Shown here one piece after another: positions 20,915-35,271 of a DNA stretch of 64,000 bases. Origin of the DNA: Candidatus Anstonellales archaeon (lineage in GTDB: Archaea > Micrarchaeota > Micrarchaeia > Anstonellales > J096); NCBI GenBank assembly GCA_038740615.1, contig JAVYLQ010000001.1, forward strand, positions 19,157 through 83,156. Direction: 5' to 3'. The first letter of the stretch is position 1; each line of letters begins with the position of its first letter. A program made the position numbers and the translations under genes. A model generated the notes under the pieces. It made no database searches and had not been told where the DNA came from. It saw only the letters and a list, made by a program, of their open reading frames with translations.

Positions 20915-23593
20915 ATGATTAAAATATTTATAATAAGTACAATTCTTCTCTTATCTGGGTGTATTGATCAACTCAGAATACAATTAACTAAATCTGCTAC
21001 AGATTACTATAGACTAGCAGAGAGTGAAAATATATCGGTAAGTTTTGATAAGAACAAGATTGAAGATTTTATGAAAAGGGTAAATGAAGAGTATGATAAG
21101 AGAGATAATGCAACCCTATATGCATTTGTGTGTAATTACACTCAATTAAAAAAGGTTGGTTTTGACAAATTCAAAGCCTATTGGAAATATCTATTCACCA
21201 AAGATTCTAAAGTGATGTTTGATGAATCTCTAATAGGAGGCAAGTGTTGGATTCAGAATGTGTCCCATTTTCCAAGTATAGAAGCGATAATATTCTCCGT
21301 GTTTTTAGAACCTGAAGAGATCAGAAACAACACTGCATTTTACAAAACTTATCTGGATAAAGATGGAAATGTTGTGGTTGAGGAGCCACCATCGGATCTC
21401 GATGAAATAAGGAGACTCTACAAGATATTTGATAGACATGTATTCTTTGGTTTAGCATCGGGTCCATCCTTTGGAGATTTCAATGAACTCAATCCATTCT
21501 GTAATAACAGCCTTAGATATCCTGTAAAATTCATCACTGGGACAGAGAACCAGTATTTGATTCCTGCAACTCCAGAAATAAGAGCTGCATGTTACTTAGA
21601 TCTTGGTTATATACCTATATACGTATTCTATGCTAGAAATGGTATTCCAGAAGTAGATAATTCATACATACTGGTTTCAAGATTAGTAGATATGAATTCT
21701 CCGGATAGGGAAGCAATAGGACCAGTCTTCTTATTCTCGGAGGGTTCATTAACACCCTCACAGCTGCTCAAAGGATTGGAAGAATATACTCCTGGTGCAG
21801 ATAGATACACCGGTAGAGTTAGAGCTCAGATAGTAGGATGGAAAACTCTGTGTCCAGATTGTATCGTAGGATTAACAGTGCCTTTTGATATCAGCCCTAA
21901 TGAGTTGAAAGAGCTTAGGGATATGATTAGAAATGATCCTTGGTTGTATTCAAATATATCTATAATAGGATTTGGTATAGATGCAGATCGATTAAATAAT
22001 AGATCAAACTTCCATGAAATGATTCAGAGAATAGAGATGATTGTAAAATTCGCTAGGGATCTTGGTAAACCTTCTGCAGCTCTGTATATGTATATTCCTC
22101 AGAGCTGGACAGAGAGGAAGATCAGAGCTGATGGATTTGAATACAGTGGATTAGATTACATCATGAAAAATTTCTATTCAATAGATGCAGTAGCTAGTTC
22201 GAATGTATTTAATCTGGCTGGGAGAGGTTTGATAATGATGCCCACCCTCCCTCTAATACCAGAATCCATGCAGATATTATTAGGCAAATCCTCTGCAGTA
22301 TCGGTTCTAGATACTGCAATGAACCCTTATGAAGATGCATTCTCGTATACATTAAGCTATTGTAAGGATTATTTTAAAGTAGGCATAAACTCCCCTCTAA
22401 TATTCTCCTCATCTGGTGTTGATCTAAAAAACATACAACTAACTCAGAAATCTGAGTTTTACCAGGATCAACCACAATACAGAGAACCCAGATTTACTCC
22501 TGATAAGAGATTTACTATAAACGACAAGGATGATACTATTTTCAAGTGTGTAGGATGTTTCTTGATCCTGAATAGTACTCAGGTAGGAAATTTCAAATCA
22601 ATATTCAATCTAGATACATATAAACATAAATGTGAAGAACCGTCTCCTCAGATTATTAATAAGATTAAACTCTACTCAGATATAGTTGATCTAGATCCAC
22701 CTTTCTTAAGAGCATTGATTGAACAGTTTAGCAATTATGACAAGTGCCACGTATCATTTGTAGATTCAAAAGCTGAACAGTTAGAGAGATGCGGACACAA
22801 CCTGGAGTTCTCTGATATACAATCCGATCTAGCTAAAGCAGGATGCTCTGTAAGCAAGAAATCTGATTATGTTTGTGGATTTGGGGTGATGGATGTTAAA
22901 ATAGATATTACTAAGGAGATATTAGAACCTTGTATCCCATCTAAAGGATACATTAGAGACATGATCTTTGACGAATCTATTAATCTATGCAAGGGCGCAA
23001 TTATGTTAGCAAACGCATCAGATGGTGCTGAAAAGATTATAAATGAATATCCCAAGTATATGTTAGACACTAAATATATCGAAGAGAGGTATTTATTATA
23101 TAGAATGATTTTAACATCTTTGGTGTATGATCAAGGATATAATTTCAGTAAAGCAACAGTAAGATTCTTTGAGGGGCTTGTAGATGAACTGAAAATAGTT
23201 GGGCTTACTGGTGATAAGAAAAAAGATAACCAACTATGTCTGGATTATATGGCACTCCCACACTTCAATAATTATTGTTGCATTATCATATCAAGTAGCG
23301 AAGCGGAGATGGTTAATCCATATTGTGTTAAAATAACTAACACAGAGGCATACTGGGATTTCCTATTAGGAATGAAGCTTGCACCGGGAATGATGATAAC
23401 TTCCGATCCTCCATATTCAATAGGATTTAACAAAGCTTATGAAAAAGTTGAACCAACACTAAAAGTGATGTCAAAATATTTTGATGTATACCAGAAATGC
23501 AAGGATTGTGCAGATGAGAAATGGGCTGATAATGTAATAAAGAAGAAAAAGCAAATATGTGCAAACCTACCAGATTTACCGATATGTAAATAG
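20915..23593 (+). CDS. Large secreted Cys-rich (lipo)protein with a degenerate lytic-transglycosylase-like domain
   Basis: Signal/lipobox-like LLLSGC; many Cys; DPPFLRALIEQFS...GVMDV...INLCKGAIML pattern. Confidence 0.5.
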   Translation: MIKIFIISTILLLSGCIDQLRIQLTKSATDYYRLAESENISVSFDKNKIEDFMKRVNEEYDKRDNATLYAFVCNYTQLKKVGFDKFKAYWKYLFTKDSKVMFDESLIGGKCWIQNVSHFPSIEAIIFSVFLEPEEIRNNTAFYKTYLDKDGNVVVEEPPSDLDEIRRLYKIFDRHVFFGLASGPSFGDFNELNPFCNNSLRYPVKFITGTENQYLIPATPEIRAACYLDLGYIPIYVFYARNGIPEVDNSYILVSRLVDMNSPDREAIGPVFLFSEGSLTPSQLLKGLEEYTPGADRYTGRVRAQIVGWKTLCPDCIVGLTVPFDISPNELKELRDMIRNDPWLYSNISIIGFGIDADRLNNRSNFHEMIQRIEMIVKFARDLGKPSAALYMYIPQSWTERKIRADGFEYSGLDYIMKNFYSIDAVASSNVFNLAGRGLIMMPTLPLIPESMQILLGKSSAVSVLDTAMNPYEDAFSYTLSYCKDYFKVGINSPLIFSSSGVDLKNIQLTQKSEFYQDQPQYREPRFTPDKRFTINDKDDTIFKCVGCFLILNSTQVGNFKSIFNLDTYKHKCEEPSPQIINKIKLYSDIVDLDPPFLRALIEQFSNYDKCHVSFVDSKAEQLERCGHNLEFSDIQSDLAKAGCSVSKKSDYVCGFGVMDVKIDITKEILEPCIPSKGYIRDMIFDESINLCKGAIMLANASDGAEKIINEYPKYMLDTKYIEERYLLYRMILTSLVYDQGYNFSKATVRFFEGLVDELKIVGLTGDKKKDNQLCLDYMALPHFNNYCCIIISSSEAEMVNPYCVKITNTEAYWDFLLGMKLAPGMMITSDPPYSIGFNKAYEKVEPTLKVMSKYFDVYQKCKDCADEKWADNVIKKKKQICANLPDLPICK

Positions 23594-23597
23594 AACG

Positions 23598-24239
23598 ATG
23601 TTGAAACTGGGTTACAACCAATTCCCTAGTTCTCAAATGGATACAGTAAGGTTTAAGTTGTCAAATTATACAATTGAATTACGTAGATGCTGTAGAAATT
23701 ACTCTGATATAATGCACTATCACATTCAATCTCCAGAAACGATCTATATTATCTCTGGGAGTGGCAAGTTAATATATAATATAAATAATAGAACGAATGA
23801 ATTGAATTTTAGTGAAGGAGAGTATATAAGAGTATACGCAAAAACACCACATTCTATATATGTCGATACAGATAGTATAATACTTACTATTCAAGAAAAT
23901 ATAGATAGAATCGATCATAATGGAGATTATTTGGCTCGAGGTCTATTTCCATTTAAAAGTAATATCAAAAACCCAATTTCGTTTAGAGATCCTAAGATCA
24001 AATTATCAATATATCGAATACAAGATTATGAGCTGCAAAAACAATCTCCCGATCTCAAAAATTACTATCTCATAATAGTAGGCATGAGCAAATTCAAATA
24101 TGGTGGTAAATGGTATGATAGAGGAATTCTGGTAATAAACAGAGATAATATGGAAGATTTGGAGAATTTACCTGATCATGGGGCTATATTGAAGATATCA
24201 TCAAAACTTCTTAATCGAATATTCCTGGACCCATCATAG
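23598..24239 (+). CDS. Cupin-domain protein
   Basis: MHYHIQSPETIYIISGSG and EGEYIRVYAKTPHSI cupin motifs. Confidence 0.75.
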   Translation: MLKLGYNQFPSSQMDTVRFKLSNYTIELRRCCRNYSDIMHYHIQSPETIYIISGSGKLIYNINNRTNELNFSEGEYIRVYAKTPHSIYVDTDSIILTIQENIDRIDHNGDYLARGLFPFKSNIKNPISFRDPKIKLSIYRIQDYELQKQSPDLKNYYLIIVGMSKFKYGGKWYDRGILVINRDNMEDLENLPDHGAILKISSKLLNRIFLDPS

Positions 24240-25543: not shown

Positions 25544-25933
25544 ATGTTCAGAAAGATAGATAAGGATCCTAAGATATTAGAACTGAATATTGGTATTGAG
25601 ATGGATGATTATATTTTGGTCTCGGATTATGATTTGAGATTACTGTATGATTATGGTTTGTATTCAGAAAAACCGGATGTTGATGAAAATATATACAGAA
25701 CATACAGAGAGCTATATGAGAAGGCATACAACCCAGAGATATTTGTTTACGATAATTATACTTACATAAAAATAACCAAGCAGAAATATCTTCGACACAA
25801 ACCTAGGTATGAATACATAATTGCGTTTGATCTAGATCTGAACAGACATTTTAGAGCTGCAGTAGCTTCAAAACTCAAACTAATAGTATTGCACGATGGT
25901 AGATATTATATAATAACACCTTCATCTCTATAG
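25544..25933 (+). CDS. Putative non-catalytic (beta-type) tRNA-splicing endonuclease subunit
   Basis: IYRTYRELYEKAY and RAAVASKLKLIVL...YYII follow the EndA fold pattern; catalytic Tyr/His/Lys context not evident. Confidence 0.5.
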   Translation: MFRKIDKDPKILELNIGIEMDDYILVSDYDLRLLYDYGLYSEKPDVDENIYRTYRELYEKAYNPEIFVYDNYTYIKITKQKYLRHKPRYEYIIAFDLDLNRHFRAAVASKLKLIVLHDGRYYIITPSSL

Positions 25934-27695: not shown

Positions 27696-28583
27696 CTATT
27701 TACTCACAGAATCAGAACTATCATAATCGATATATGGTACGAAACACTTTATAGCCTGTTTGAATTCTGTGAGTTCCAATCCATAGGATAGAGCTTTAGT
27801 GATGTTAAAAGATCTGGAGAGAGTTATTGGATATATCTCCTCTTTTCTAGAATAGATATATTCCATTGTATAGCCGAGAATAGTAGAAATTATTGGAACT
27901 TTTAATCTAGCTCTAAATAATTCTCTAACGGGCCTAGGGTTCATTTGAATGCCTAACACCTCTGATACATCTCTAATAATCTGCATAAACTCTATTCCTG
28001 GAGAGGTTAGATTGATCACATCAGAATTATTAAATTCTAGATTTTTAGAGATAAATTTGGCTACGTCTCTTGCATAGATAAATGGAACAGTATTCTTCCC
28101 ATCTCCAAAATAGAAAGGTCCGTGCCTCTTCCAAGCTCTTAACATATCCAAATACTGCTCATAATATTCCCCGAAAACAGTCCCAATTCTTAATATCTTT
28201 GCTCTTTTAGATGATTGTATCACTATTCTCTCAGCAGCTAATTTTGAAGCCCCGTAAGCGTCATTAGGCCGTGTTGGACTAGATTCATCAAATCCACTAA
28301 AATTTCTACGTCCGTATACTGCAATTGATGATAGGAATATTATTCTATCGCTGTTCAATCCTTGTAATATCTCATCTACAATCTTATAATTTACTCTCCA
28401 AATATCATCAGCACTGCCTTTAGTTATACCGATCGCAATTATCACAACATCATATCCCTTTACCTTATTTGCTATGCTTTCCCTATCATAATTTATATTC
28501 TGTCTGGAGTAGGGATCATATGGGATGAATTCAGATATATATCTTGCAATTCTAGAGTTGGCACCTATAAGAGCTATTTTCAT
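27696..28583 (-). CDS. NAD-dependent epimerase/dehydratase (extended SDR)
   Basis: IGANSRIA, SSIAVYG, YGASK. Confidence 0.85.
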   Translation of the reverse strand: MKIALIGANSRIARYISEFIPYDPYSRQNINYDRESIANKVKGYDVVIIAIGITKGSADDIWRVNYKIVDEILQGLNSDRIIFLSSIAVYGRRNFSGFDESSPTRPNDAYGASKLAAERIVIQSSKRAKILRIGTVFGEYYEQYLDMLRAWKRHGPFYFGDGKNTVPFIYARDVAKFISKNLEFNNSDVINLTSPGIEFMQIIRDVSEVLGIQMNPRPVRELFRARLKVPIISTILGYTMEYIYSRKEEIYPITLSRSFNITKALSYGLELTEFKQAIKCFVPYIDYDSSDSVSK

Positions 28584-28637
28584 ACATCTCTTCTATTAGA
28601 ATCTGTAGAATATTTAAAATTATCCATGTAAATAGTT

Positions 28638-30245
28638 ATGATGAAATCGAAATTAAAGTATGGCAAGAGCAGCAATCTGAGTAGAGCAATAAGAATTGAT
28701 TATGATAGTACCCAAGACATCTGTGATTATTCTGATAGCCAAGGGATCAGAGAGAGATTAATTAGAAAATTTCTGGAGAGATTCAAGAAAGACTTGGAGA
28801 GAGGTAAATACGAACGGGTCATATCGAATTGGCCTCTACCAATACAAATAGAACCGAACAAACATAACGCAAGAGAGATTTTAGATTTAATATACAGCGA
28901 TATAACTCGAATTTATGAGTCTTTATCTTCATTAGAGCAAATACATACGATCAGGAAGATTAAGACAAGTTCAGATAGATTGAGTAAGCTAATAGAGATC
29001 CTTAGAGCTACTAAATACGATAAACTAACTGAGTATTCTGTACTATTGATAGAAGGTTTGAAAGTAGTCAGTAAAGAACGTTTTGGGGAGCAGATGGCAA
29101 ATATTCTTAATCATATTATATATGATAGTGATAGTAGTTGGGATAGAGCGGATTATAAGTTGAGTAATGATAAATTAAGATATGTTAAAGCTGCCCTCTC
29201 AATAGCTGGGATTGTGTTTGCTCTAGAGTATTCTAAGAGAAAAAATGAGTCTAGGAAAAAGTGGGATAATGTTGCTAGATTCTTCATTGAATTCTATAAG
29301 GAGCTCGAGTACGATGGTGTTGTGGATGTTATCGAAGAAGTATACTTTATGGATAGAGAGCAATTTAACAGAATTTATGAAGAATTAAAATGTAAAAAGT
29401 TCCAAGAGATACGAGATGTGTTAAAAAATTTAGAGAATGTAGAGGGAGTAGAATCTAGATTGAAAAGTAAATACAGTACCTATATGAAGCTTAAGAATAA
29501 GTATAAATTAGATCCGGATAATCAGAAACTGGATCTAAATACTGTAAAGGAGAAATTAAATGATGTGAATGGATTCAGAATCATACTGAAAGATCCTAAT
29601 AATTTCACAAAAACTCTAGCTCTTCTACTACATAAGATATCGGAGGTAATAAGAGATATTAAGATGATAGAGTTGGAGTTCTATAATTGTGAAGACCGAT
29701 TGGAGCAGATGAAACGGGATTTAAAAAAACCCCCCAATAGTCTTATAGAGGAGCTAAACGAACATATAAAAAATAATAATACTAAGATGGAATCCAGGAA
29801 GAAAGATAATAACTATAGGGCAATTCATGTACTGTTTGCTACCCCAGAAAATGTTAAAATAGAAGTACATGTGATTGAAAGCAGAGAAATCTATGAGAGA
29901 AACAAATACTCTCAATCATCCGCACATATTATTTACAAGAACAGAGATTTGCAAGATGTGGTTGACAAACTTAGATCCACTTTACTACAGCTATTATCTC
30001 TAAATCAAATTATGCTAAAAGATGGAAATGAGGAAATAGAGTTGTCACCGGCTGATATCAAATCTTATGGTGATAAGCAGATCATATGGCAGAGTGGTGC
30101 AAATGATCGTGTGATATTGCTATTTGGAGATAGTCTAAGTTATATGAAAGTCCTAAGTCCTAAAGTAGAAACGCCAATATCCATAAATGTTAAAATAGAC
30201 AAATATACTAATAAGATGGTGGCTAAAGTTGAATCAGATAATTGA
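28638..30245 (+). CDS. RelA/SpoT-like protein (degenerate HD domain, nucleotide pyrophosphokinase domain, possible TGS remnant)
   Basis: SRLKSKYSTYMKL, NDVNGFRII, KDNNYRAIH, KIEVHV, AHIIYK in RSH synthetase order. Confidence 0.72.
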   Translation: MMKSKLKYGKSSNLSRAIRIDYDSTQDICDYSDSQGIRERLIRKFLERFKKDLERGKYERVISNWPLPIQIEPNKHNAREILDLIYSDITRIYESLSSLEQIHTIRKIKTSSDRLSKLIEILRATKYDKLTEYSVLLIEGLKVVSKERFGEQMANILNHIIYDSDSSWDRADYKLSNDKLRYVKAALSIAGIVFALEYSKRKNESRKKWDNVARFFIEFYKELEYDGVVDVIEEVYFMDREQFNRIYEELKCKKFQEIRDVLKNLENVEGVESRLKSKYSTYMKLKNKYKLDPDNQKLDLNTVKEKLNDVNGFRIILKDPNNFTKTLALLLHKISEVIRDIKMIELEFYNCEDRLEQMKRDLKKPPNSLIEELNEHIKNNNTKMESRKKDNNYRAIHVLFATPENVKIEVHVIESREIYERNKYSQSSAHIIYKNRDLQDVVDKLRSTLLQLLSLNQIMLKDGNEEIELSPADIKSYGDKQIIWQSGANDRVILLFGDSLSYMKVLSPKVETPISINVKIDKYTNKMVAKVESDN

Positions 30246-30921
30246 TTATATTGCTAGTGTTGGTATAGATGGAGCCAGATGGATAGAGGAGAATGTTGAT
30301 AAACAATACCAGTCATTACTAGAACTATCAGAATATCTACCCACTGATAGATTCCTTACGTTGATTGTAAAAAATGCACTGATTGCATTCCAACTCACTT
30401 CTAAAGGTGAACACTATTGGCAGGAGTTTAGCGAATACTTCATAAGTAATCCTGATAAAGATATAGTAGATTTTTTGAGAACGAGTAAGGGAAATAGATT
30501 GTATCACAATATGAAAATTAATAGATTGAAAAGAATAGAGAATTCTGTTTTTGGAATAGAGTACTACTGGGATATGAATAAACTAAGAAGAGAACTGGAA
30601 TTAAAGTTGAATAGTACTGGTAAGACAATATTCTTTGCTGTGAAAATGTACGGATATGGAGCTAGAATAGTTTCAAAACAATTCATACCGTATCCAACAT
30701 CCATCCCCATACCTGTTGATTCTAGAGTAAGGAAAATAACAGAAAGGATTGGAGGATCCGACCCAGAGAAGTTCTGGCAAGAGGTATCTCACCAAACAGG
30801 AGTACCACCACTACACATAGATTCTATAATCTGGCCTTTACTATCCGGAGATAGGGAAATACTAGATAGGTATAGATCTAGATTTAGTATACCTAAGTTT
30901 TTATCCTCTTTAATAGATTGA
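30229..30921 (+). CDS. N-glycosylase/DNA lyase (AGOG family 8-oxoG glycosylase)
   Basis: FQLTSKGEHYW, KTIFFAVKM, IPIPVDSR, PPLHIDSIIW. Confidence 0.9.
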   Translation: MNQIIDYIASVGIDGARWIEENVDKQYQSLLELSEYLPTDRFLTLIVKNALIAFQLTSKGEHYWQEFSEYFISNPDKDIVDFLRTSKGNRLYHNMKINRLKRIENSVFGIEYYWDMNKLRRELELKLNSTGKTIFFAVKMYGYGARIVSKQFIPYPTSIPIPVDSRVRKITERIGGSDPEKFWQEVSHQTGVPPLHIDSIIWPLLSGDREILDRYRSRFSIPKFLSSLID

Positions 30922-33078: not shown

Positions 33079-34785
33079 ATGATTTTAAGATCACCTATAA
33101 TAAGTGTATTGGGTCATGTTGATCATGGTAAAACCAGTCTATTGGATAGAATAAGACAATCAAATATAGCTAGAAAAGAAGCTGGAGGGATAACTCAAAT
33201 GATAGGTGCAAGCTATCTATCTAAGGATTCAATAATTGCTCTATCTGGAGATTTTCTAAAGAGATGGAATTTTGAATTATTGATTCCAGGGTTATTATTC
33301 ATAGATACACCTGGCCATGAGGCATTTACATTATTGAGAGAACAAGGAGGGAGTATAGCTGACTTAGCTATACTTGTTATAGATATAAAACAGGGTATCC
33401 AACCTCAAACAGTAGAGAGTATAAACATACTCAGGAACTATAAGACTCCTTTTGTAGTTGCACTAACCAAAATAGATCTGATCAGTGGGTGGAAAAACTT
33501 AAGCGATAATATAATTAGTAACATAGAATTGCAGAATAGTATAACTAGGAAGGAATTTGAAGAATTAGTCTGGAGAAGAATTGGCGAATTAGCAGAACAG
33601 GGAATAAATGCAGATCTGTTTTTCAACATAAGAGACTTCACCAGAACCGCTGCAATTGTACCTGTATCATCAGTAACTGGGGAAGGATTCTCCGAATTGA
33701 TCGGATTGATATGTGGATTATCTCAGAGATTTCTCAGAAACTCACTACAGATAGAGTTAGATGAACCTACAGAGGGCACTATAATAGATTTGAAAAGAGA
33801 TTCTGGGGGGAATTATATTGATGTGATTATATATAAGGGCAAGTTAAGGAAAGGGGATACTATATACTCAATAGATCTATCAGGTAATATAAAGACAATA
33901 AAGGTCAGAGGTTTATTTATCCCAAATGTATCTTCAAATGATCCTAGAGATAGATATAAATCAATAGATCAGATAGCTGCTGCAGCCGGGGTTAGAATAG
34001 TAACTAATTCAATCGACGGATTGATGATAGGATTACCGATATCTAGTAAGACTAAGATAGATAACTATAACATAAATAGGATCTTAAAAGTGGACGACCA
34101 GGGTATAGTAGTGAAAACAGATTCTATTGGTAGCGCTGATGCATTCAGAAGACTTGTTGAGAAAGAAGGGATAAAAATAAGGAAAATAGGGGTTGGAAAC
34201 ATAAACAAAGATGATATAGAAATGGCATCAGCCATGAATGAATTAAACCCAGATTATGGTTTTGTAATAGGATTTAATGTGAACATATCCAGAGAGGATC
34301 TGGAATTTGCAGAGTCACATGGGGTTAAGATAATAATAGGAGATGTAATATACAGATTGATTGAATCCTACAAGGAGAGAGTTAGAGAGAAGCGCGAGAG
34401 GTTACTCCAGGAATTGATGCAGAAGGCCACTCCTCCAGCAAAGCTGTTTGTAATGAAAGATTACATATTCAGAATTAGTAAGCCTGCAATATTTGGTATT
34501 AGAGTTATTGAAGGGGAAATTAGGACGAATATGAGATTAATAAATAACCAAGGAGAGATTATCGGAGAGGTTGTAGGGATACAAAAGAATAAGATTCAGA
34601 TAAATTCTGCAAAGGCAGGAGAGGAAGTTGCAATAGCTGTAAATGGTGGTGAAATAGGAGATAATATACTACCAGATAGTTTTCTATGGAGTGATGTGAG
34701 TGATATTGATAAGTGGAGAGATATGATATCTCAAGAATTATATGAGGAATACAGAAGAATATTATTACTTAGAAAAATAAGATAG
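33079..34785 (+). CDS. infB: Translation initiation factor aIF5B (IF2)
   Basis: GHVDHGKT, EAGGITQ, DTPGHEAF, TKID. Confidence 0.96.
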   Translation: MILRSPIISVLGHVDHGKTSLLDRIRQSNIARKEAGGITQMIGASYLSKDSIIALSGDFLKRWNFELLIPGLLFIDTPGHEAFTLLREQGGSIADLAILVIDIKQGIQPQTVESINILRNYKTPFVVALTKIDLISGWKNLSDNIISNIELQNSITRKEFEELVWRRIGELAEQGINADLFFNIRDFTRTAAIVPVSSVTGEGFSELIGLICGLSQRFLRNSLQIELDEPTEGTIIDLKRDSGGNYIDVIIYKGKLRKGDTIYSIDLSGNIKTIKVRGLFIPNVSSNDPRDRYKSIDQIAAAAGVRIVTNSIDGLMIGLPISSKTKIDNYNINRILKVDDQGIVVKTDSIGSADAFRRLVEKEGIKIRKIGVGNINKDDIEMASAMNELNPDYGFVIGFNVNISREDLEFAESHGVKIIIGDVIYRLIESYKERVREKRERLLQELMQKATPPAKLFVMKDYIFRISKPAIFGIRVIEGEIRTNMRLINNQGEIIGEVVGIQKNKIQINSAKAGEEVAIAVNGGEIGDNILPDSFLWSDVSDIDKWRDMISQELYEEYRRILLLRKIR

Positions 34786-35271
34786 ATAGGGCTGAATTAG
34801 TTTCTGAAACACGCTGTAACGATTTATCTTTATGATAATCCATCTGCCCTGTTTAAGAACTATCTCAGGATACATACCTAGATTATTCAACAACCAAAAA
34901 TCCTGTGCATCCCCTAAGATTTCATTATCTTGTAGTTCTATCTTCTTAAGATTAGCTAGTTCTCTGGAAGCCTCATATAGACCTGCCAGATATGCTCCAG
35001 AGAATTCATTTAAGAATCTGAATTTTCTAATTCTTTCCCTCTCAATTCTCTTTATCATCCCCCTCCCTTTAGTTGTTCCTCTAATAATATAGCCATTTCC
35101 TAATTTGATGACTTCATATTTATCATGTGCTAGAAAAAACTTAACATACCAATCAATAAATTCTTTTGAATGAGTGCCTCTAATGCCTATCCCACCTTTA
35201 CCATATTTTAATAGATGCCACCATCCTACCATATAAGCGATATGAGGTTGAAACTTAACGCTTGAGGACAT
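34765..35271 (-). CDS. Hypothetical protein with degenerate double LAGLIDADG-like helices
   Basis: IAYMVGWW and AYLAGLYEAS helices, LLNNLG, F..LIQPYL ending. Confidence 0.5.
   Translation of the reverse strand: MSSSVKFQPHIAYMVGWWHLLKYGKGGIGIRGTHSKEFIDWYVKFFLAHDKYEVIKLGNGYIIRGTTKGRGMIKRIERERIRKFRFLNEFSGAYLAGLYEASRELANLKKIELQDNEILGDAQDFWLLNNLGMYPEIVLKQGRWIIIKINRYSVFQKLIQPYLSYFSK

Follow-up and report, generated by a model that had tools for sequence, protein, structure and literature searches.

The RSH gene and its identity

The stretch analyzed here (the window) comprises 64,000 nt from a Candidatus Anstonellales archaeon, whose genome (G000) is 542 kb in size and 83% complete, and the gene under study encodes a RelA/SpoT homologue (RSH). 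The open reading frame (ORF) lies at 28638..30245 on the forward strand, exactly where the original prediction had placed an RSH synthetase-like protein, and encodes 535 amino acids. Profile, fold and dN/dS (ratio of nonsynonymous to synonymous substitution rates) evidence divided the product into a putative pseudo-hydrolase, a linker, a synthetase domain, a core helix and a beta-rich C-terminus. The motifs quoted in that prediction were found in the order given (RLKSKYSTYMK from residue 274, DVNGFRII from 309, KDNNYRAIH from 389, EVHV from 409 and AHIIYK from 429), and its N-terminal segments fell within residues 121-237.

In a protein search PF04607 matched residues 273-436 with an E value of 6.4e-6 and 26.9 bits, against a cut-off of 27 bits; in a six-frame search the same profile scored 30.5 bits, above the cut-off. 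No RSH was found when the PDB was searched with the single sequence. When a 12-row profile of the closest relatives was used, RelSeq came first (E 2.2e-16) and the best 21 of 27 matches were all RSH proteins. Profile-profile comparison (hhalign) with 19 Rel-type sequences gave 99.4% and an E value of 2e-21 over residues 207-439. The AlphaFold2 model, built from a 57-row alignment that included HD-bearing RSHs, had a mean pLDDT of 77.6 and was poor at residues 1-32 and beyond about residue 458. All eight Foldseek matches of this model at E ≤ 0.001 were long-RSH catalytic regions. In the VIA fold comparison the top 27 rows were RSHs (Z 13.1-8.1), and the next family, PolX, reached Z 6.9; the best row paired the synthetase domain with RelQ 5ded (Z 13.1, root-mean-square deviation (rmsd) 2.5 Å, 139 residues), and RelTt 6s2u was aligned over 262 residues (Z 12.3, rmsd 4.7), with the reservation that the model input held HD-bearing RSHs. 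Pfam, profile-profile and fold searches thus agree, showing that the ORF is a true RSH homologue. The alternative that the protein is another nucleotidyltransferase of the Pol-beta type could draw on the PF04607 score sitting at the cut-off and on the empty single-sequence PDB search; it is effectively refuted by the structural ranking, in which the top rows are all RSHs with Z 8-13 against at most 6.9 for other families, and by the profile E values for Rel-type sequences and RelSeq.

Homologue searches of large protein sets returned only 3-6 relatives, one of them 92% identical and labelled Candidatus Anstonellales archaeon; a relative at the level of the class was traced to Micrarchaeia records. 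The metagenome scan recovered one locus and the viral scan none, and the protein had no match in PHROG or PADLOC. Look-alikes in the Atlas belonged to Saccharimonadota and phage clusters (0.93-0.94) and are taken as a lead only.

The synthetase domain

The synthetase domain covers residues 263-435 (29424..29942, on the forward strand like all parts of the gene) and was delimited by PF04607, profile mapping and the fold match to RelQ. Mapping onto RelSeq showed that R274, K276, S280, K284, D309, R314, K389, N391, Y393, H397, E409, H430 and K434 are kept. A passage in PMC7983052 assigns D264 and E323 as Mg2+ ligands, R241 and R269 as the adenine sandwich, and Y308 and N306 to the guanosine site. 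By the aligned positions, the window RSH keeps D309 and E409 as Mg2+ ligands, R274 and R314 as adenine-stacking residues and Y393 at the acceptor. D272 and Q347 of RelTt are called catalytic in PMC9974481, where the dead synthetase of Acinetobacter baumannii SpoT is described as having lost R249, R277, Y329, D272 and Q347 (RelTt numbering). Four of these five residues are retained in the window RSH; the fifth, the Gln, is His411. PMC9974481 was also the only source returned by a literature search for mutant data on Q325/R327.

His stands at the Gln position in the window protein and in the three relatives nearest to it; G150, G151, G153 and P0005 have Gln there, and G149 has Lys. An alignment was made of 132 synthetase regions, a part of all hits; 67 of them belonged to family f3, with two partial sequences counted as misses. 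Among these 67, K276 and D309 were kept in 67 each, K284 in 66, E409 in 65, and Y393 and H397 in 64 each; less often kept were the Gln (37), R314 (27) and R274 (21). The change from Gln to His recurred in three f3 sequences and in one other of the 132. Across six lineages of or near the genus (19-35% identity), 19 of 269 columns were invariant: eight are synthetase residues, nine lie in helices 187-232, and the others are G312 and E347.

An insertion of about 39 amino acids (residues 350-388, 29685..29801), modelled as two helices, stands just before the guanine-binding loop. It is fast-evolving and shorter in relatives.

The N-terminal region and the linker

Residues 33-200 (28734..29237) form an all-helical domain in place of the RSH HD domain. 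From residue 28-33 onwards the model matched the N-terminal domains of long RSHs (VIA), and its pLDDT in blocks of ten was mostly 73-93, falling to 59-66 around residues 161-180. By eye, FGEQ at 149-152 corresponded to the FGEQ of L052, a canonical archaeal Rel, and LLIEG at 136-140 fell at the HD position. By contrast, a profile of residues 33-200 scored only 0.1% against Rel HD domains, compared with 97.7% for a class-level control and 26.7% for an f3 control. No HD dipeptide occurs in the first 220 residues, PF13328 is absent, and no His or Asp in the N-terminal region is invariant across the six lineages. From its position and predicted fold, residues 33-200 would thus be a pseudo-hydrolase, catalytically dead, in line with the original prediction as far as the lost motif is concerned. 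Position and predicted fold point to the HD domain, but the alignment behind the model held HD-bearing RSHs, no profile match was obtained, and sequence homology begins only near residue 205; the earlier tracking of HD-domain segments is confirmed in part.

Residues 201-262 (29238..29423) are homologous to the helices that link HD to SYNTH in long RSHs (hhalign 97.9-99.4%). Homology to long RSHs reached back only to about residue 205 (starts at 205-207), and the hhalign match from residue 207 indicates that the long-RSH linker helices are present. The linker was also the most conserved stretch between close strains (compared with G152). The protein derives from a long RSH.

The C-terminal region

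A helix after AHxxYK (residues 436-455, 29943..30002) matched the start of the long-RSH Core region, and it is followed by an acidic, beta-rich C-terminal domain (residues 456-535, 30003..30242) common to the genus, G154 and G162. The original prediction had seen a possible TGS remnant here, which found no support from Pfam, hhalign, the Atlas or the fold search. Comparison of the C-terminal 80 residues with TGS by hhalign gave 0.6-1.3%, against 94-98% for control clades, and nothing was found for them in Pfam, the PDB or the Atlas (best 0.76). The model of this domain (pLDDT 50) was too poor to rule a TGS in or out; its best fold match had Z 3.2 and no TGS appeared among the best 50 rows. The 100 residues after SYNTH hold none of the three Cys that define a ZFD, in fact no Cys at all, and no ACT match was obtained in Pfam. 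Sensing of deacylated tRNA in bacteria requires TGS, ZFD and ACT according to PMC6606846. As no TGS is recognisable and ZFD and ACT are missing, bacterial-style sensing of deacylated tRNA is unlikely here.

Selection on the gene

The dN/dS ratio was estimated by the Nei-Gojobori method from one pair, the window RSH and its G152 orthologue, and was 0.22 for the whole gene. The linker had a value of 0 (no nonsynonymous and five synonymous changes), the two synthetase halves 0.15 and 0.10, the N-terminal domain 0.27, the C-terminal domain 0.24 and the 350-388 insertion 0.74. For neighbouring genes, 13 of 14 values lay between 0 and 0.15. The remaining neighbour, a cupin-domain gene (window 23559-24239), had 0.55, the highest of the 15 genes compared. 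The RSH was 28-32% identical to its orthologues in G151 and G153, where neighbours were 47-97% identical. The gene is functional and under purifying selection, but fast-evolving.

Hydrolases and alarmone turnover

In the order, PF13328 was matched in 63 of 176 genomes (43 above the cut-off), including 44 of 99 in f3. The best 20 loci encoded stand-alone proteins like RSH-type hydrolases, 19 of them intact and one split in two. With a custom hydrolase profile, G146, G147, G155 and G162 yielded intact small hydrolases and G145 a weak match (5 of 19 genomes), while the genus, G148 and G154 yielded none. The search for a separate hydrolase suggested by the original prediction thus came up empty in the six genus genomes and succeeded in same-family relatives, whose small hydrolases fit an alarmone cycle in the family's ancestry. 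In G000, three profiles run against the six-frame genome revealed no hidden hydrolase (best E 0.21, 0.41 and 0.46). A chance absence from the genus is unlikely because six genomes, each 77-88% complete, were covered, although a very divergent gene could escape.

A PF01966 match in G000 was rejected as an RSH hydrolase, being a 390-aa HD protein of another type. This protein (L081; G000:C1:16979-18148, just outside the window) carries an HSLG...LLHD motif, resembles dNTP triphosphohydrolases and is conceivably a non-RSH alarmone hydrolase. The sole Nudix protein found in G000 (L167:1441-1905, contig C13) is a candidate for turnover of the RSH product, and Nudix turnover of the alarmone has a precedent in Thermus, mentioned in a passage of PMC3153485.

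Other hydrolase forms were seen in the survey. L090, L093 and L095-L103 are HD hydrolases of the RSH type, 360-480 aa long, in which the motif is intact and is fused to a conserved C-terminal region; that region had no match to the synthetase profile. In G108 (L092:1444-2160) the small alarmone hydrolase gene is split by a stop or frameshift.

Distribution in Micrarchaeota

PF04607 was matched in 93 of the 176 genomes of the order (86 above the cut-off): in all five other genus genomes, in 10 of 18 in the family, in 79 of 99 in f3 and in 2 of 42 in f2. The class sample gave 124 of 401 genomes, with proteins mostly of 440-670 aa and a minority of small ones resembling small alarmone synthetases (SAS). 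The premise of the original prediction that this RSH is an exception among archaea therefore fell, with hits in about half of the order and a 2021 report (PMC8407392) that covers four other DPANN groups in the passage concerned.

In family f14 (eight of nine genomes) a canonical, full-length, bifunctional Rel was found, with intact HD, SYNTH and TGS, a Cys-containing region and ACT (loci L052-L059, from G182, G177, G202, G197, G187, G222, G217 and G212, respectively). If any archaeal protein is a true stringent factor, f14 Rel is the strongest candidate. Other families had eroded HD domains and TGS-like tails. Across the class these forms make up a series leading from canonical Rel, through HD-dead forms with a TGS remnant and a separate small hydrolase, to the form in the window.

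Within f3, at least one of two neighbourhoods (an AsnC/Lrp regulator with glutamine synthetase, or a type 2 IPP isomerase) accompanied the RSH gene in 36 of 59 loci, hinting at a link to nitrogen status. L015, L016, L021, L043 and L044 are examples with the gene lying between the isomerase and the AsnC/Lrp and glutamine synthetase genes. Genus g15 carried tandem, diverged RSH paralogues, both HD-dead, one with ExIxR and the other often with ExQxK (L014, L018, L029, L031, L042, L045 and L131-L133). Loci L003-L006, L067, L070 and L078 (about 355-385 aa) formed a separate SAS-like family of sporadic occurrence, whose members keep the synthetase motif intact and are extended at the C-terminus; it is probably mobile, being scattered over unrelated families.

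A FastTree phylogeny of 115 rows, from which 17 SAS-like, partial or duplicate rows were excluded, united all 14 rows of family f1, a number that takes in the unassigned P0005 and P0008, in a single clade (0.92). A quick IQ-TREE run with 68 rows split f1 into groups of 11 and 3 (87 and 98) and separated 56 of the 57 shortened forms from canonical Rel, all on the same side (99). Both trees had very long branches and only eight bacterial rows, with neither Patescibacteria nor other DPANN phyla represented. Inheritance within genera and families is likely, and the trees do not establish a single origin. A search with L002 returned only L002 itself and one relative at 74%, and thus no bacterial donor.

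Comparison with known systems

The window RSH shares with E. coli RelA (RelA[hS]; 5iqr, 5kpv) the order dead HD (putative in the window protein), linker and synthetase (VIA Z 9.7, 263 residues aligned, rmsd 7.3, about 17% identity). An acidic E-L-E-F stands at the place of RelA's E-F-D-D, the motif named EXDD. Unlike RelA, it has no recognisable TGS, helical domain, ZFD or ACT and carries instead a new 80-aa C-terminal domain, the 39-aa insertion and His for Gln; moreover, the genus offers no SpoT-like partner. Bifunctional Rel (RelSeq 1vj7, RelTt 6s2u, Staphylococcus aureus 7oiw) gave the best profile and Foldseek matches and has the same catalytic residues, whereas in the window protein the hydrolase motif is lost and the regulatory half is missing. 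Among archaeal proteins, L052 retains HD_4, SYNTH, TGS and ACT and passes TIGR00691. The SAS proteins RelQ and RelP (5ded, 6fgx) gave the best local fold match for the synthetase, and ribosome-independent synthesis would be a second trait in common. Unlike an SAS, however, the window RSH has 535 residues, about 260 of them before and 100 after SYNTH; being multi-domain and bearing the long-RSH linker, it is to be classed with the long RSHs, in reduced form, instead of with the SAS proteins. It would work like the catalytic fragment of RelA, yet it fails the full definition of a long RSH: the earlier label of a long RSH is borne out in its derivation, and does not extend to a protein with only 100 residues after the synthetase, no cysteines there and no ACT. 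Thirteen subfamilies of long RSHs are distinguished in 10.1101/575399.

The toxic SAS (toxSAS) enzymes (FaRel, FaRel2, PhRel, CapRel) and Tas1 share the synthetase fold with divergence at the acceptor site. They are single-domain toxins with antitoxins or secreted effectors, whereas the window RSH is multi-domain and set among core genes, and no conserved antitoxin gene stands beside it as in a toxSAS-type bicistron in the six genus genomes.

Only scattered small RSHs were found in archaea according to a passage of PMC3153485. In PMC8407392, RelA/SpoT was listed for Diapherotrites (69.0%), Woesearchaeota (41.7%), Pacearchaeota (21.3%) and Nanoarchaeota (19.0%); these are likewise reduced-genome archaea, and a bacterial source was proposed for their genes, with Micrarchaeota absent from the passage concerned and no domain or active-site analysis in it. 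Our literature search found no paper that treats RSH, Micrarchaeota and ppGpp together or that links Anstonellales with RelA, and for DPANN and Woesearchaeota PMC8407392 was the single relevant one, although subscription papers and supplements may list such proteins.

Neighbouring genes and the locus

The RSH gene end overlaps by 17 nt the start of the gene for AGOG (8-oxoguanine glycosylase; 30229..30921, forward strand; PF09171 E 1e-55, NF009785), whose TTG start is preceded by GGTGG at 30218-30222. The two genes are probably co-transcribed. Both this overlap and the core-gene setting had been predicted and were confirmed; nearby core genes are those for GlyRS, uS7, uS12, SRP54, FtsZ, aIF5B/IF-2 and PheRS alpha. 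The gene order RSH-AGOG was also found in G152 and G153 and not in G149 or G150, and as only three of five genus genomes with a visible downstream gene show this linkage, it represents local synteny. A functional tie to 8-oxoguanine repair (e.g., capping of oxidised GTP) was rejected because the coupling is missing in G149, G150 and all other families examined.

On the other side lies a divergent NAD-dependent epimerase-like gene (27696..28583, reverse strand; PF01370), found at the same position in G151, G152 and G153. A TATA-box-like TTTAAAA (28613..28619, forward strand) stands 25 nt before the RSH start codon and may act as its promoter. It is the single such element in the 54-nt gap between the divergent genes (28584-28637) and could be a TATA box both ways; the RSH transcript may be leaderless.

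The RSH gene is single-copy amid housekeeping genes in all six genus genomes; neighbours differ among them, and none was conserved as an antitoxin or immunity gene in the six compared. Its GC content and GC content at third codon positions (GC3) equal those of its neighbours. Recent transfer and chimeric assembly were ruled out by the neighbour-like GC3, synteny and independent contigs. A 45.9-kb contig covers the whole locus with six differences, being near-identical and possibly the source of the window, and two other strains had no indel in the parts of the RSH gene covered. All 19 sequencing runs listed were DNA, and 18 of them were hot-spring metagenomes.

Three further genes of the window were recorded. 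An 892-aa Cys-rich lipoprotein-like gene (window 20915-23593) lies 5 kb upstream of the RSH gene; in G149 and G150 it is directly upstream of it in the same direction. Two small genes without significant Pfam match (34765-35271 and 25544-25933) are 95% and 100% conserved in G152, and the 168-aa one of them also occurs in G153 (47%).

Activity of the window RSH and alternative explanations

With moderate confidence, drawn from active-site residues and the predicted fold, we regard the window RSH as a putative ribosome-independent, synthesis-only enzyme of the (p)ppGpp type, with a dead hydrolase and an altered synthetase that is probably active. It would be a chromosomal, lineage-inherited RSH limited to synthesis. 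ATP would be bound with R274 and R314 on the adenine, K276 and K284 on the phosphates and D309 and E409 on Mg2+, and a guanine nucleotide would be held by the stacking Y393 together with K389, N391 and H397. Transfer of pyrophosphate to the 3'-OH would then yield (p)ppGpp, probably slowly, both the catalysis and the guanine specificity being deduced from these residues. Control may come from the pseudo-hydrolase, the linker and the new C-terminal domain rather than from stalled ribosomes, and the product may be cleared by the single Nudix enzyme or by dilution. It could act on translation and secretion GTPases and thereby brake growth, for example in a cell off its host.

Several observations weigh against this account. 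The catalytic Gln is replaced by H411 and the Arg two residues on by I413; the original prediction had noticed that EVHV departs from EIQIRT and left the change unweighed, although PMC9974481 describes this Gln as catalytic. Four of the six lineages have another residue in place of R314, and the K-x-N ahead of the tyrosine is variable; because both R314 and this guanine-loop motif are replaced in other genus members, the active site is drifting. Most neighbouring genes evolve far more slowly than this one. No RSH hydrolase was detected in the genus with PF13328 or the custom profile, and G000 had no phosphoribosyltransferase or Ppx/GppA match and only a sub-threshold one for IMPDH, indicating that some classic targets and turnover routes were not seen. 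Finally, (p)ppGpp was never detected in the archaea tested, as stated in passages of PMC8646023 and PMC10249747.

Alternatively, the partner hydrolase may have been lost and the synthetase may have decayed to a sensor or scaffold, kept for binding ATP or GTP and, via the conserved linker helices, a partner protein. Such a pseudo-enzyme would be consistent with Q411H and R413I, with the genus lacking a detected hydrolase, and with the concentration of constraint outside catalysis, with nine of the 19 invariant columns falling in helices 187-232 and no part more constrained than the linker; a catalytically dead, regulatory synthetase domain has a precedent in Moraxellaceae SpoT (PMC9974481). However, even very divergent orthologues all share both metal ligands, the lysines that bind phosphate and the stacking tyrosine, and G154 and G148, also without a hydrolase match, yet retain R, K, D, R, Y, H, E and Q. 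We consider such decay unlikely. A change of acceptor, rather unlikely too, would leave an active pyrophosphotransferase that modifies ATP/ADP (giving (p)ppApp), some other nucleotide, or the 3' end of tRNA or of another RNA, perhaps as a reversible brake on translation. The ATP/Mg2+ side is indeed fixed, while the genus shows variation in the K-x-N, the Gln, the following Arg and the inserted hairpin by the guanine loop; the pI of both the N-terminal and the synthetase domain is basic (about 9.2-9.3), and tRNA-modifying RSHs have no clear sequence signature according to 10.1101/2021.04.30.441581. Nevertheless, K389, N391, Y393 and H397 are kept as in guanine-specific Rel, Tas1 came close to last among the RSH rows (Z 8.2, VIA), and those enzymes known to make (p)ppApp or to target tRNA are toxins paired with cognate antitoxins, whereas no conserved antitoxin-like neighbour was found here.

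Delivery as an effector that poisons a host cell or stops its growth, which the original prediction had raised, is very improbable. The tiny genome, the fast evolution of the gene and the missing self-hydrolase would suit it, and this DPANN lineage is presumed to be host-dependent. Against it, hydropathy revealed no signal peptide or membrane segment, the gene is single-copy among housekeeping genes in the six genus genomes with neighbour-like GC and GC3 and no conserved immunity gene beside it, and neither a PHROG or PADLOC match nor a viral relative was found.

Significance

The window RSH is a reduced long-RSH derivative in Micrarchaeota; RSH in other DPANN phyla was noted in 2021 (PMC8407392, in the passage concerned). 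A 2026 paper still calls the (p)ppGpp system absent in archaea (PMC13728122), and the survey supplies actual proteins on which the question of archaeal alarmone synthesis can be put. L052, as a canonical Rel, or L002, with an intact motif and in the same clade, would serve better as a first demonstration that archaea synthesise (p)ppGpp than the window RSH, which offers a case for whether a synthetase with His for Gln and without TGS or hydrolase works, and on what. A speculative and doubtful extension is that in this genus the RSH took on a housekeeping role as a pyrophosphotransferase that is non-toxic and has no hydrolase beside it, having acquired both a new sensor domain and a new acceptor, which would be either a nucleotide other than guanine or the 3' ends of tRNA or RNA; if true, it would be an archaeal dormancy switch grown from a lineage-wide alarmone system of Micrarchaeota. 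The window RSH matters mostly through the lineage-wide system to which it belongs, a natural series in which a ribosome-sensing enzyme may have been pared down in reduced genomes, with the window RSH at its far end.

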